Translations under genes and position numbers: made by a program
Part shown: in pieces, positions 510 through 7,493 of the stretch
Layout of the letters: every line of letters starts with the position of its first letter
Position numbering within the stretch: position 1 is the first letter of the stretch
Virus record (IMG/VR): IMGVR_UViG_3300029875_000118
Strand: one strand, 5' to 3'
Length of the DNA: 7,493 bases
From: a virus
Lineage: Duplodnaviria; Heunggongvirae; Uroviricota; Caudoviricetes
The notes under the pieces: generated by a model
Seen by the model: only the letters and a program-made list of their open reading frames with translations
What the model was told of the DNA's origin: nothing
The model's database searches: none

Positions 510-791
510 TTACATCCAGCCACGAATTTGATGATCAATAGCAATTGCGTATTCATCGAATATTGACGGTATTTTGACATCATTAATGATGCGTACGTTT
601 ACAAAATATCCGTCCTCCTTAACACATACAGGATCACCACCTTCTGTTAGTTCGCCTGTTTCTTTGTATACGTCACCTATTACATCAATGAGAACATCGT
701 TCTGTATCATCTCGTCATCATAATAACCAATGCTATCCATAAAGGCCGAAAAGTCTGCCTTGTCTGTGAATTTGATAATTAAATCTCGCAT
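510..791 (-). CDS. Hypothetical small acidic protein (93 aa), translationally coupled to the fibre gene; possibly a fibre chaperone or accessory protein
   Basis: ORF MRDLIIKFTDKADFSAFMDSIGYYDDEMIQ...HQIRGWM. Its ATG (789-791) shares one base with the fibre TAA (791-793) in a TAATG arrangement. A strong SD, GGGAGAGG, lies 6 nt upstream inside the fibre 3' end. About 20 Asp/Glu against 8 Lys/Arg. I do not recognise the family. Confidence 0.65.
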   Translation of the reverse strand: MRDLIIKFTDKADFSAFMDSIGYYDDEMIQNDVLIDVIGDVYKETGELTEGGDPVCVKEDGYFVNVRIINDVKIPSIFDEYAIAIDHQIRGWM

Positions 792-3230
792 TATATTACC
801 TCTCCCATTTGCGCATCGGTTAATTCTTTATGCCATATACGAAAATTACGAATGTGACCAAAAAGATGACGTAGGCCGCTATTAGTCTGCCCCCCAATCC
901 TGAAGAAATAACCAGATTTGACACCGACATGATCCGTGGTTTTAGGAGTTCCATGCTGGGCATTGCTAACGAAATGCACATTACCAGATTCATTTAAAAC
1001 AAATCCAAGAACAGATTTTTGTTCAAATAATACTGGCGATACCGCGGCTACTGTACTACCGTTTTTATTGTACATTGTAACACCAGGAAATAATGTTGAA
1101 CTGATAGCAACACTTATATATTGACCCGGAGTTGTACTCCCACCACTGGTATCAAAAACTCGTGGTGCTGCATTTGGCGTTTCGTTCCAGTTTGTATGAA
1201 CTTCAGCTAGAAATGTTAAAGGTGGTGTACCGATATTGTTATTTGTTGGTATATTCACCATATCACTGGCTCTTGTGACTGGCGTTGCCTCAGTAATAAT
1301 AAACGAAGAAGCGCACGAACCGCCTTCGACCTGAGGAGTTGCAACATAAATATAATCATCTGCACCAGTGCCACCCCCTTTTGGTGGTGCATATTGCACC
1401 ATCGCACCGATCATATTTTCTGTATCAAGTGCCTTAATTGTTGCCTCAAAGAAAATCCATTTGCTTGCTTCATTTTTAACAGCCCTTGCAGTAATACGAC
1501 TTGCAGCGCCGCCAGTTTTATCAATCGATAAATCTGTCATATTTAAGTAAGCATCACCCAGGAATTTGTAGGTAGAGCCATCATATTCTTCAAATCGTAA
1601 TCGACATCTTAAATTTGGAGTCCCACTTTGTACCCTGCATGAGATAGTTACATACTTTTCATCGCCGGTAACATCATATCCTTTGCTTCCAGATACTGTG
1701 ACAATAGAAATGGCTGAGGTTTGCCCCACCATTTCTGGTTTTAATGTGAATTTTGCGTACTGGAAACCAAAATCATCTACACCTGATGTATTTAAAATCA
1801 TATTTGATGACTTGTTCCACTTTGATGGATTTGTGCTGTTTATTAACAGGTTTGTACGCTGCCCTTCAATCAGCAATCCATACTTTTCAAAGCGAGGTTC
1901 ATCGATTGCAGCCTCTGTCAGCACACCAGATTTATTAATATAGGTTGCTTTCGATGCGCGTTTAAACTTTACAATCTTGTCGCCAGGCATTGTTATTTCA
2001 TCGTCGCCAATAACAATCTTTTTATATGATGGCGAAAAGCCCGTAATCATATCCAGTGAATCGTTAAATGGTATCCACACATCAGGAAGCGGCTGTAATA
2101 CATATTTATACGGTTCTGCTGCCTGGCTTGCGTACTCTCTGGCTGCGTCTTCACTTGCTTTAGCTGCTGTCTGGCTTGCAGCGGATGCTTTCGCCGAGTT
2201 CGCCGCCGCAGTCTCGCTCGCCTTTGCGTTGGTTTCACTGGTTTTTGCAGCTTTTTGACTATTTGCTGATGCAGTGGCAGAAGCAGCCGCCGCACTTGCA
2301 GAACCAGCTGCGGCACTCTCGCTTTCAGCTGCTGCATCCTGACTACTTTTCGCCGCAGTTTCACTGGCTTTAGCGTTCGTTTCGCTGGTCTTCGCTGCCG
2401 TCTGACTGGACTTTGCGTTAGTTTCGCTAGTCTTCGCTGCTTTCTGGCTGTTAGCCGCAGCAGTTGCTGATCCAGCTGCTGAAGTCGCAGAACCGGCTGC
2501 CGCGCTCTCGCTTTCGGCTGCTGCATTCTGGCTATTNNNNNNNNNNNNNNNNNNNNNNNNNNNNNNNNNNNNNNNNNNNNNNNNNNNNNNNNNNNNNNNN
2601 NGCCGTCTGGCTGGACTTTGCGTTGGTTTCGCTCGTCTTTGCTGCTGTCTCGCTATTTTTCGCGTTGGTTTCGCTCGTCTTTGCTGCTGTCTCGCTATTT
2701 TTCGCGTTGGTTTCTGATTTTTTGGCTGCTGTCGCGGAGTTTGCCGATGCAGTCTGTGAGGCCGCTGCCGCCTGTGCGCTGTTACCTGCATTCGTCTCTG
2801 ACGTTTTCGCCGCGTTCTTCGATGATGCCGCTGCAGTTTCGGATTTCTTTGCCGCCGCTGCGCTCTGAGAGGCGGCTTCGGCGTTGCGTGCCGCTTCTTC
2901 CACCATTGCCTCAAAACGACGCAATGCCTCCGGCATGACATCCTCTTCCGTCATGGCACCGAGAAAATCATTCAGCGTACCTGGTCTGGAACCTTCATAG
3001 ACGGTAATGGTCCCGGCATGTGAAGGCGGAAAACCTTCAACCAGCAGGATAACGCTGTACTGGCCATACTCAACATCCATACTGTAACGCCCGGCTTCAT
3101 CCGGATTTTCTGAGGCCACCGTGTTTACCACAACCGTGGTGCTGTTACGTTTTGCTTTGAGCTGAATGGTGCAGTTCTGTATCGGTTTTCCTGCACCGTC
3201 TTTCAGCACACCTGAAATCTGTACTGCCAT
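791..3230 (-). CDS. stf: Side tail fibre protein (lambda Stf-like N-terminus and repeat shaft, non-lambda distal domain); interrupted by an N-run with an apparent frame change
   Basis: The N-terminal frame reads (MN)MAVQISGVLKDGAGKPIQNCTIQLKAKRNSTTVVVNTVASENPDEAGRYSMDVEYGQYSVILLVEGFPPSHAGTITVYEG..., which matches the lambda Stf N-terminus as I recall it. GGAG lies 5 nt upstream of the ATG at 3228-3230; the ORF-track start at 3236 sits inside that spacer. Ala/Ser/Thr/Glu-rich repeats (KTSETNAKSSQTAAKTSETNAK...) run into the N-run at 2537-2601. The same repeat protein resumes in a different frame after the gap and continues to a TAA at 791-793, ending ...GHIRNFRIWHKELTDAQMGEVI. The two ORF-track pieces (2532..3236 and 791..2941) are therefore one gene. 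The Arg-rich N-terminal part of the 716-aa ORF (2602..2941) is an off-frame artefact. Confidence 0.8.
2270..2536. repeat. Imperfect long-period direct repeat (about 189 bp, about 63 codons) in the fibre shaft-coding region
   Basis: The segment beginning gcagaaccagctgcggcactctcgctttcagctgctgcatcctgact (from 2298) recurs with a few mismatches from 2487 (gcagaaccggctgccgcgctctcgctttcggctgctgcattctggct). The protein shows the matching repeat ...AAAESESAAAGSA...NSQKAAKTSETNAK... Confidence 0.8.
2537..2601. other. Run of 65 N (assembly gap or masked bases) inside the repeat region of the fibre gene
   Basis: Directly visible. The true coding frame differs on the two sides of the run. Confidence 0.99.
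2620..2703. repeat. Perfect 42-bp tandem duplication (two copies) inside the fibre shaft-coding region
   Basis: 2620-2661 and 2662-2703 are identical (gcgttggtttcgctcgtctttgctgctgtctcgctatttttc), encoding a 14-aa unit of the TSETNAKNSETAAK type. Degenerate copies flank it. Confidence 0.9.
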
Positions 3231-3240
3231 ATTCACTCCA

Positions 3241-3269
3241 CAAATAAAAAAGGCACCATTTCTGGTGCC
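3241..3269 (-). terminator. Rho-independent terminator-like hairpin between J and the side tail fibre gene
   Basis: On the minus strand: GGCACCA-GAAA-TGGTGCC (7-bp GC-rich stem, GNRA-type tetraloop) followed immediately by TTTTTTATTTG. It sits 20 nt after the J stop and directly upstream of the fibre RBS (GGAG) and start. It is probably leaky, since the fibre gene has no room for its own promoter. Confidence 0.55.
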
Positions 3270-3288
3270 CGAATTTGGGTTTTAAAAT

Positions 3289-6200
3289 TCAACTGATACG
3301 GATACCGGCTGTTGATTTCTTCATCACGACAACAAGAAGGTCGCTGATACTGGTCGTTGGCGTCCAGTTATTAGCACCATATGAAGAAACATTGAAAGTC
3401 AGGGTGACATGACCGTGTCCGGCAGGCATATCAATGACGGATGAAAATACCCTGCTGACATCCGTCGCGGGTTGCTGAAAGATTTCCTGTCCGTTCTTCA
3501 GCACCTGCAGCTTACAGGTTGAATACCAGTATGACTGTTGGTTGTTGCTGTTGAAGTTTTCATGCTTACCACCGCGAAACAGAACGGGTGGGATTACTAT
3601 CTGACGGTCAAAAGCCTGGTCATCGTACACAGTGACCGTTATTGTACCGCTGGCATAACTGCCATTTCTCGGAAAGGCTTTTCCCACCGTTTTGACAATA
3701 TCACCTTCAATCTGGTTGGCAGACAGTTTTCCCAGAATCCGACAGTTCTGGTTAATCGTGACATTGTTGAGCGTCCCGGAGTTCGCATTCACGTTACCGC
3801 TGATATCGGCATTTTTCGCCGTCAGCCGCCCGTCCGGTGTCAGGGAAAATACCGGAGGATTGCCGCCGCTGGTAATGGTGGGAGCCGTCAGATACTTCAG
3901 GAACACTTCGTTCATGAATATCTGGTTGCCCTGCGCCACAAACATCGGTGTTTCATTCCCGTTTGCCGGGTCAATAAACGCGATACGATTGGCGGCAACC
4001 AGAAACTGGCTCAGTTTGCCTTCCTCTGTATCCTCCATGCTGAGGCCAAGCCCCGCGACATAATGCTTACCGTCTTCGGTCTGCTCAATTTTGACGCCCC
4101 ACATGGCATTCCATTTATCGTTGGCGTCTTTCCACTCTTTCGAAAACTCATCCAGTCTGCTGGCGTTATCCTCCGTCAGGTCGACTTTTTCCAGCAGCTC
4201 TTTACCGAGATGGGATTCGGTTATCTGGCCTTTGAAAAAATCCAGGTAACCTTCCGCATCATCGCTCGCCCGACCGACGGCTTCCACGAATGCTGATTTG
4301 CCAACGGTGTTCACACTGCGAACGTAAAAATAATAATCATGGCCAGGCTTGATATTGATACTGGCGGCTATCCAGTACAGCGCCGTGCCAAGATAACGCG
4401 CGCTGGTTTCAACCTGCCTGATATCGGTAATCCGCTTTTCCGAGAACCAGAACTCAAACTGTACCGTCGGGTCATAAACCGCAAGATGCGGCGTGGCGGT
4501 TATCTGAAAATAGCCCGGCGTCAGCTCAATCCGCGATGGCGCTGCCGGTGCGGCAATCCGGAACGATACCGACGCCGGATCCCCCTGCTGTCCCCACGCA
4601 TTTACCGCCCGGACTGTCAGCCTGTAGTTCCCCAGCGCCAGTTGCGTGAAGCGGTATGTGGTTTCCGTCGTCCTGGCCGTGCTGACCAGTCGCTCACTGC
4701 CATCGTCCGCTGCCACGGTCAGGCGAAGCAGGAAGCTCACGCCCTTCACCACCTTCGGCGTGTCCCAGCGCGCCAGCACCTGATATTCCCCGCTGTCAGC
4801 GGTGACTTCTGCGGTCAGGTGCTGCACCGCTGGCGGCGTGACACCGTTCACCGTTCCGCTCTGGTCGCCGTCAAAGTGCGCCCCGTTATCCACGATGGCT
4901 TCTTTCTCCGGTACATGCTGCACGGCAGTGATGGCATACGTGCCGTCGTCGTTCTCACGGATACTCACACAGCGGAACAGGCGCTGGCGCAGCGTCGGCA
5001 GCTTCAGCCCCCACACGCTGTACTCGGCAACGCCGTCAGGAACCCGGCTCACTTTCACCTTCACGCCGTCGGTGACGGACTGGACCTCCACGCTGACCGG
5101 ATTCCCCTGCCCGTCAACCAGGCTTATCAGCGTGGTGCCGGAGGATGGCAGCGTGATTTCACGGTCGAGCGTCAGCGTCCGGGTCTGGCGGTTCACCGCC
5201 AGCACGCGCCCGCCGATGCTGATCCCCGCATAGTCATCATCACAGATTTCAATAACATCGCCCGGTACATGGCGAAGCCCTTCGGCACCCACGCTGAAGT
5301 CCACGGTCTGCGTTTCCAGCAGCTCCGTTTTAATCAGCCACAGCCCGGCGCGGTGTGCCTGCCCCCGGCTGGTACAGCCAAAGGCATCCATTTTCGTGAC
5401 GTTACGACCGTAACGGCGAATGGCCTGCGTATCCTCCACAAGCTCTGTCGCCGTCTCCCAGCCGTTATTCGGGTCAATCCAGTTCACCTCAACGGCATTA
5501 TGGCGGTCCTTCAGGGCGCTGAAGCTGTAGCGGAACGGCGCGCCATCATCCGGCATCACCACATTACTGCGGTTATAGGTCCACACCTTATCCGACGGTC
5601 GGTCCTGCACGAACGTCAGCGTCTGCCCGTTCCATACCGGCATACAGCGCATTGCCGAGCAGAAATCACTGAGAACATCCCACGCCTTACGCTGTGTGGT
5701 CAGGTAGGCATTACAGGAAATGCACGGCTCCGTGCCACCAAAACCGTCCGGCACCGACTGGTCGCAATACTGGCCGATGACATACAGCGCCCATTTGTCC
5801 ACATCCGCCGCACCAAGACGTTTCCCCATGCCGTAGCGCGGATGGGTCAGCATATCCCACAGACACCAGGCCATGTTGTTGCTGTATGCTGGCTTAAACG
5901 TTCCGTCCCAGATACCGCTGTATTGCCGCGTCTGCGGGTTATAGTTCGACGGCACCTGCAGAATGCGCCCGCGAAGATGATAATTACGGCTCACCTGCTG
6001 ACTGCCGAACTGTTCCGAGTCCACCTGCACGCCGACCAGTGCCGTGTTCGGGTAGCACTGTTTCACATCNNNNNNNNNNNNNNNNNNNNNNNNNNTGTTC
6101 TGCAGCTGGTCTGTGGTGCTGTCCGGCGTCATCCTGCGCATCCGGATATTAAACGGGCGCGGCGGCAGGTTACCCACCACCACCGAGGCCAGATACTGCG

Positions 6201-7389: not shown

Positions 7390-7493
7390 TTGTCGGTATA
7401 CCTCTCTCGTTTGCTCAGTTGTTCAGGAATATGGTGCAACAGCTCGCCGTCGCCGCAGTAAATGGCGGCATGATTCGGCACCGATGAACCAAA
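7287..7493 (-). CDS. K: Tail assembly protein K, C-terminal fragment (N-terminus lies beyond the right edge of the window)
   Basis: The minus-strand frame is open from the window edge and reads ...FGSSVPNHAAIYCGDGELLHHIPEQLSKRERYTDKWQRRTHSLWRHQAWHASAFTGICNDLAAASTFV, ending at a stop at 7287-7289. The 'HAAIYCGDG' segment fits the His-containing motif of NlpC/P60-type peptidases, and the sequence matches my recollection of the lambda gpK C-terminus. The ORF track shows only the 64-aa piece from an internal GTG. It overlaps gene I by about 103 nt in a different frame, as I recall for lambda K/I. Confidence 0.8.
   Translation of the reverse strand, partial: FGSSVPNHAAIYCGDGELLHHIPEQLSKRERYTDKWQRRTHSLWRHQAWHASAFTGICNDLAAASTFV

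Follow-up and report, generated by a model that had tools for sequence, protein, structure and literature searches.

A 65-N run in a lambdoid side tail fibre gene most likely represents an assembly gap of 49 nucleotides within one intact reading frame

In the 7,493-nt stretch of DNA analysed here, which we refer to as the window, a run of exactly 65 Ns (positions 2537-2601) interrupts a tail fibre gene whose reading frame appears to change from one side of the run to the other. We conclude, with a probability of roughly 0.92, that this run marks a gap left by assembly or scaffolding, with a length that was estimated, in the repeats of the fibre shaft, that the DNA it stands for most likely measures 49 nt, and that this DNA belongs to one gene of 807 codons. 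The change of frame almost certainly arises only because a gap of estimated length is read as if it were real bases, and the underlying gene is almost certainly that of an intact side tail fibre of 807 aa.

The gene content of the window, with every gene on the minus strand, corresponds to the distal end of a lambdoid tail module, and the gene order I - J - fibre on that strand is the same in annotated relatives. The features of the window, and those within the fibre gene that bear on the apparent frame change, were as follows:

7389-6742, minus strand: tail assembly gene I
6681-3289, minus strand: gene J (tail tip / host specificity protein), followed directly by the fibre gene
6070-6095: 26-N run inside gene J
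3270-3251, minus strand: terminator-like hairpin with a T-run, ~20 nt before the ATG of the fibre gene
3230-791, minus strand: Stf-type fibre gene, from the ATG at 3230 to the TAA stop at 793-791
2602-3230, minus strand: 5' part of the fibre gene, with the PF08400 collar and the first heptads, to residue 209 plus two bases of codon 210
2620-2714, minus strand: perfect 42-nt tandem repeat equal to two heptads (KTSETNAKNSETAA; TRF, 2.3 copies, 100% match)
2537-2601: 65-N run inside the fibre gene
2532-2534, minus strand: apparent TAG stop, met only if the 65 Ns are 65 bases
791-2536, minus strand: 3' part of the fibre gene, with the remaining heptads to about residue 370 of 807, the C-terminal domain and the TAA at 793-791
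791-510, minus strand: 93-aa ORF (phrog_1361), of unknown function
500-1, minus strand: start of a second fibre gene, cut by the window end

The fibre gene encodes a lambda Stf-type side tail fibre composed of a PF08400 collar, a heptad shaft and a C-terminal domain like that of spike fibres. The match to PF08400 (prophage tail fibre N-terminal) covers residues 1-131 with a score of 226.3 bits against a cut-off of 26.6, and the segment that encodes it (window 3230-2838) lies outside the N-run. The N-terminal domain is homologous to the solved collar of lambda, as residues 1-94 align end to end with the 'Tail fiber protein' of PDB 9e7m/9mgh (E 7e-50). The whole 807-aa protein belongs to phrog_1419 ('tail protein', 1402 bits), and the NCBIfam model NF048003 ('phage head spike fiber domain') matches residues 448-649. 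The mechanical list of ORFs placed the start of the gene at a GTG (3236), two codons before the ATG at 3230; the start at the ATG (MAVQISG...) agrees with those of the related loci L001, L020 and L021 (L numbers denote loci retrieved for comparison) and of the solved lambda protein, and another allele of the fibre (L030/L031) starts with MAAVKISG.

Several observations were made on the surroundings of the gene. The ATG of the 93-aa ORF shares one base with the TAA of the fibre gene (TAATG), which couples the two, and no match to the ORF was found in Pfam or NCBIfam. In many related loci (L030, L032, L034, L037, L038) an ORF of 92-93 aa likewise follows the Stf-type gene, at a position where one would expect a gene for fibre assembly or for a chaperone. 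No Tfa-type assembly gene was found directly downstream of the fibre gene, the 93-aa ORF being followed by the second fibre gene. The latter is 234 aa long in relatives, with a weak match to Peptidase_S74 (endosialidase chaperone), and given its start at 500-1 the prophage has two fibre-like proteins after J. The gene lom, which many relatives carry, is absent from the 52-nt spacer between J and the fibre gene (3237-3288). In the near-identical contigs L020-L022 the end of the prophage adjoins a gene for a KAP-family NTPase and the cluster thrS-infC-rpmI-rplT-pheMST, and it is likely that the vicinity of this cluster is also the chromosomal context of the fibre end of the window.

The frame switch itself, described in the original prediction together with a TAG immediately after the Ns, is present in the record as reported. 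From the ATG at 3230 the N-terminal frame reads MAVQISG...KSSQTA, with TSETNAKSSQTA just before the Ns, and if the 65 Ns are taken as bases this frame re-emerges as NAA followed by TAG at 2534-2532. The repeat-rich protein (NSQNAAAESESAAAG..., NSQNAAAESESAAAGSATS...) is free of stops in the frame whose first codon lies at 2536, through to the stop at 793-791. The edges of the run are GCCGTCTGGCTG, from 2602, and TCTGGCTATT, ending at 2536, and the two frames join only if the gap has a length of 1 mod 3 (49, 64, 67, 70 and so on), whereas 65 is 2 mod 3. An arbitrary gap length would break the frame with a chance of 2/3. The immediate TAG is unremarkable, since the wrong frame (frame 2) of this GC-rich repeat is full of stops, and as a result of these two circumstances the pattern alone is uninformative as to whether the gene is broken.

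In order to close the gap from related sequences, contigs were collected by an exact-protein look-up of the neighbouring 93-aa ORF, which returned 10 contigs from NCBI, ENA metagenome and Logan assemblies. Nine of these align with the window at 99.8-100% up to both N boundaries, and in all nine the fill is exactly 49 nt. Among them L023 is 100% identical to the window on both sides of the gap, over 115 nt on the upstream side and 2536 nt on the downstream side, and L021 is likewise 100% identical across 899 nt upstream of the gap. In L023 and L027, whose flanks are exact to the N boundaries, the fill reads AGCGAAAACCAGCGAAACGAATGCTAAAGCCAGTGAAACTGCGGCGAAA in the orientation of the gene. The gene is intact in these relatives: the four contigs that contain the whole of it (L020, L021, L025 and L027) have a single uninterrupted ORF of 807 aa, in agreement with the single product of about 810 aa that had been anticipated for the locus. 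Insertion of the 49-mer into the window gives an ORF of 2424 nt, the product of which differs by one residue from the L027 protein and by one from the L021 protein. Based on the sequences of these relatives, the source organism would be expected to have the same 49 nt.

The length of the fill was also uniform across a wider set of sequences. A population scan, in which the 23-nt and 30-nt flanks had to match exactly with 40-70 free bases between them, returned 18 matches from IMG/VR, 9 from metagenomes and 1 from Escherichia ruysiae, all of them 102 nt long, which equals a fill of 49 nt. The 39 fetched loci that contain the junction have six sequence variants of the fill and a single length (49 nt), and no fill of 64, 65, 67 or 70 nt was present among these loci or in the flank scans that permitted 40-70 nt. 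When the fibre region and the whole window were compared by megablast with 5,426 complete E. coli genomes and with a phage collection, no near-identical locus was identified, only alleles of ~92-95% identity, the best over the fibre region being at ~95%. An exact pattern of 104 nt that covers the 42-nt duplication of the window together with the upstream flank had no match among the genome, viral and metagenome contigs searched. The best annotated of the related loci, L001, encodes a protein of 798 aa ('prophage tail fiber N-terminal domain-containing protein'), has 49 nt between the flanks and lacks one 42-nt repeat unit that is present in the window. Other alleles of the fibre are continuous ORFs of 781 and 798 aa; these lengths, like the 807 aa of the near-identical contigs, lie within the ~700-1100 codons expected for Stf-type side tail fibres. 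One locus, L031, has no long fibre gene listed and was considered as a candidate for a frameshifted stf; it was rejected as such, its DNA being identical to that of L030 with the 799-aa ORF intact.

The 26-N run in gene J (6070-6095) provided an internal control for how lengths of N-runs in this record are to be read. The corresponding DNA is 32 nt long in every homologue examined (AAACGCTCTGGTCGTCATACACCGAAATCATC in L030) and encodes the conserved ...NKTLWSSYTEIID... segment. Five loci (L030, L031, L032, L035 and L038) are 100% identical to the window over 1398 nt upstream of this gap, and all have 32 nt; beyond the gap the window is still L030-like at the next three informative sites (6013, 6001, 5968). 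The difference between 26 Ns and 32 nt therefore indicates that the lengths of N-runs in the record are estimates and not base-for-base masks. The lengths given are wrong in both places, the run in J being 6 too short and that in the fibre gene 16 too long, and the frame of J is kept across its Ns because an error of 6 is a multiple of 3. Thus the preference expressed in the original prediction, namely that the gap length is arbitrary and the fibre gene intact, is borne out by the nine near-identical contigs with 49 nt and is further backed by this second N-run.

As the identity of the window switches between L030 and L020 near the N-run in J, a scaffold join of two prophages at that run was also considered, and it was rejected by a site-by-site comparison. 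The switch from L030-like to L020-like sequence falls in the interval from 5968 to 5821, where the sequence is contiguous. Positions 7493 to 5968 of the window agree with a lineage of prophages that lies beside zinT/hya and has lom (L030 and others; 100% over 1398 nt), and those from 5821 onward with a lineage that lies beside thrS-infC-pheST and is without lom (L020, 99.86%). This mosaic junction at 5821-5968 looks like the product of natural recombination and not a scaffold chimera. The J gap itself is within a stretch of ~105 nt that is common to the two J lineages except for one C/T difference inside the gap.

The repeats around the fibre gap gave a further constraint on its length. With the 49-nt fill in place the protein has 36 uninterrupted Ala/Ser-rich heptads (AAKTSET / NAKNSET / ...) at residues 119-370, with a period of 21 nt in the DNA, and the heptad register is continuous across the fill, with Ala at fixed positions. 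As the register is kept only by fills of 7+21n nt (28, 49, 70 and so on), both the 65 nt of the record and the in-frame length of 64 nt break it. The perfect 42-nt tandem repeat sits 18 nt from the gap and yields an exact repeat of 53 nt just upstream; another exact repeat, of 28 nt, lies mostly inside the fill and has its second copy 189 nt downstream. The shaft is 253 aa long in the 807-aa allele, which has the 42-nt duplication, versus 239 aa in the commoner alleles, and the duplication is absent from the best-ranked complete E. coli genomes. Repeats of this kind, the 42-nt tandem included, make the stretch hard to assemble from short reads. Since the gaps in J and in the fibre gene both lie in repeated or shared sequence, we consider that they probably represent typical break points of short-read assembly.

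The alternative that had been set beside an arbitrary gap length is that the Ns replace bases one for one, in which case the shaft repeats would contain a true +1/-2 frameshift and the gene would be a split stf pseudogene like that of laboratory lambda. The frames do differ at a gap of 65, some stretches of the sequence collection are masked as N, and a frameshifted stf is already known from lambda PaPa (PMC12617516). The statement that laboratory lambda carries such a frameshift, which accompanied the prediction, is correct, but it has no bearing on the window. Against a base-for-base reading, the run in J has 26 Ns in place of the 32 nt of all homologues, the five with 100% identity upstream among them, relatives with exact flanks have 49 nt in 39 of 39 cases with no 65-nt or out-of-frame fill, and a surplus of 16 bases is compatible with neither repeat unit (21 or 42 nt). 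With N lengths that are not base for base and relatives that are in frame, the proposal of a real frameshift is left unsupported, and we regard it as very improbable. It is similarly hard to credit that the 65 Ns conceal a true variant that breaks the frame, such as 16 nt inserted into the 49-nt allele; if they did, the prophage would have a naturally inactivated side tail fibre, comparable in the wild to the stf frameshift of laboratory lambda.

That the gene is intact but that the Ns conceal an in-frame length variant private to this strain, such as 70 nt (one more heptad) or 91 nt (one more 42-nt unit), is improbable. Alleles do vary by two heptads elsewhere in the shaft (239 versus 253 aa, the perfect 42-nt duplication), and 65 is numerically nearer to 64 or 70 than to 49, but every near-identical contig has 49 nt, including those with flanks of 100% identity, scans that permitted 40-70 nt yielded no fill of 70 nt, and the control in J indicates that the N-runs are several bases too short or too long. 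A functional change of frame, whether by programmed ribosomal frameshifting or by slippage-driven phase variation in the repeat tract, has almost no chance of being correct. What speaks for it is only an apparent frame switch and the capacity of repeats in principle to slip, whereas the repeat units are of 21 and 42 nt, so that slippage preserves the frame, and the relatives have a single ORF, with frames that do not overlap. The reading that best accounts for the data is thus an estimated-length gap that stands for 49 nt in an intact gene.

The comparison with the side tail fibre of Ur-lambda places this gene in a well characterized family. Ur-lambda gpStf is a trimer whose collar domain (residues 1-91) contacts gpV and gpM, and beyond the collar a flexible linker leads into a proximal coiled coil (102-393), which is followed by a hinge and, distally, by the part that binds the receptor (PMC12617516). 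The window shares with it (PDB 9e7m/9mgh) the PF08400 collar, aligned over residues 1-94, the location of the gene downstream of J in a lambdoid tail module, and a long region of Ala/Ser-rich heptads at the position that the proximal coiled coil occupies in Ur-lambda. The window differs from Ur-lambda in that the C-terminal half of the protein is unrelated to the OmpC-binding end of the lambda fibre, having instead the NF048003 module (phrog_1419), in that lom is missing between J and the fibre gene, and in that the gene downstream is the 93-aa ORF of unknown function and not one for a Tfa-type assembly protein. Laboratory lambda (PaPa) is without side tail fibres as a result of its stf frameshift (PMC12617516). 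The fibre gene in the raw window resembles PaPa stf in appearing as two ORFs in different frames; however, the lambda frameshift is a sequenced mutation, and the one here exists only if 65 Ns are 65 bases. In comparison with estimated-length scaffold gaps in repetitive genes assembled from short reads, no difference was found: the flanks of the N-runs are contiguous elsewhere, and the N lengths and true lengths disagree (65 versus 49; 26 versus 32), both in repeated sequence, making the window an ordinary case.

We propose that 49 nt under the Ns would join both frames into the one gene of 807 codons. In its product, the N-terminal collar domain would dock on the tail tip, in keeping with its homology to the docking domain of lambda, and the shaft of 36 Ala/Ser-rich heptads would, by analogy with Ur-lambda gpStf, probably form a trimeric coiled coil. 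The C-terminal domain, unlike that of lambda, probably binds a surface receptor. There is nothing new in the feature as such: the fibre belongs to a well-known family, and what interrupts its gene is an ordinary assembly gap. For this record, a gene caller would split or truncate the fibre gene and may label it a pseudogene, and reading frames should not be inferred from the lengths of its N-runs.
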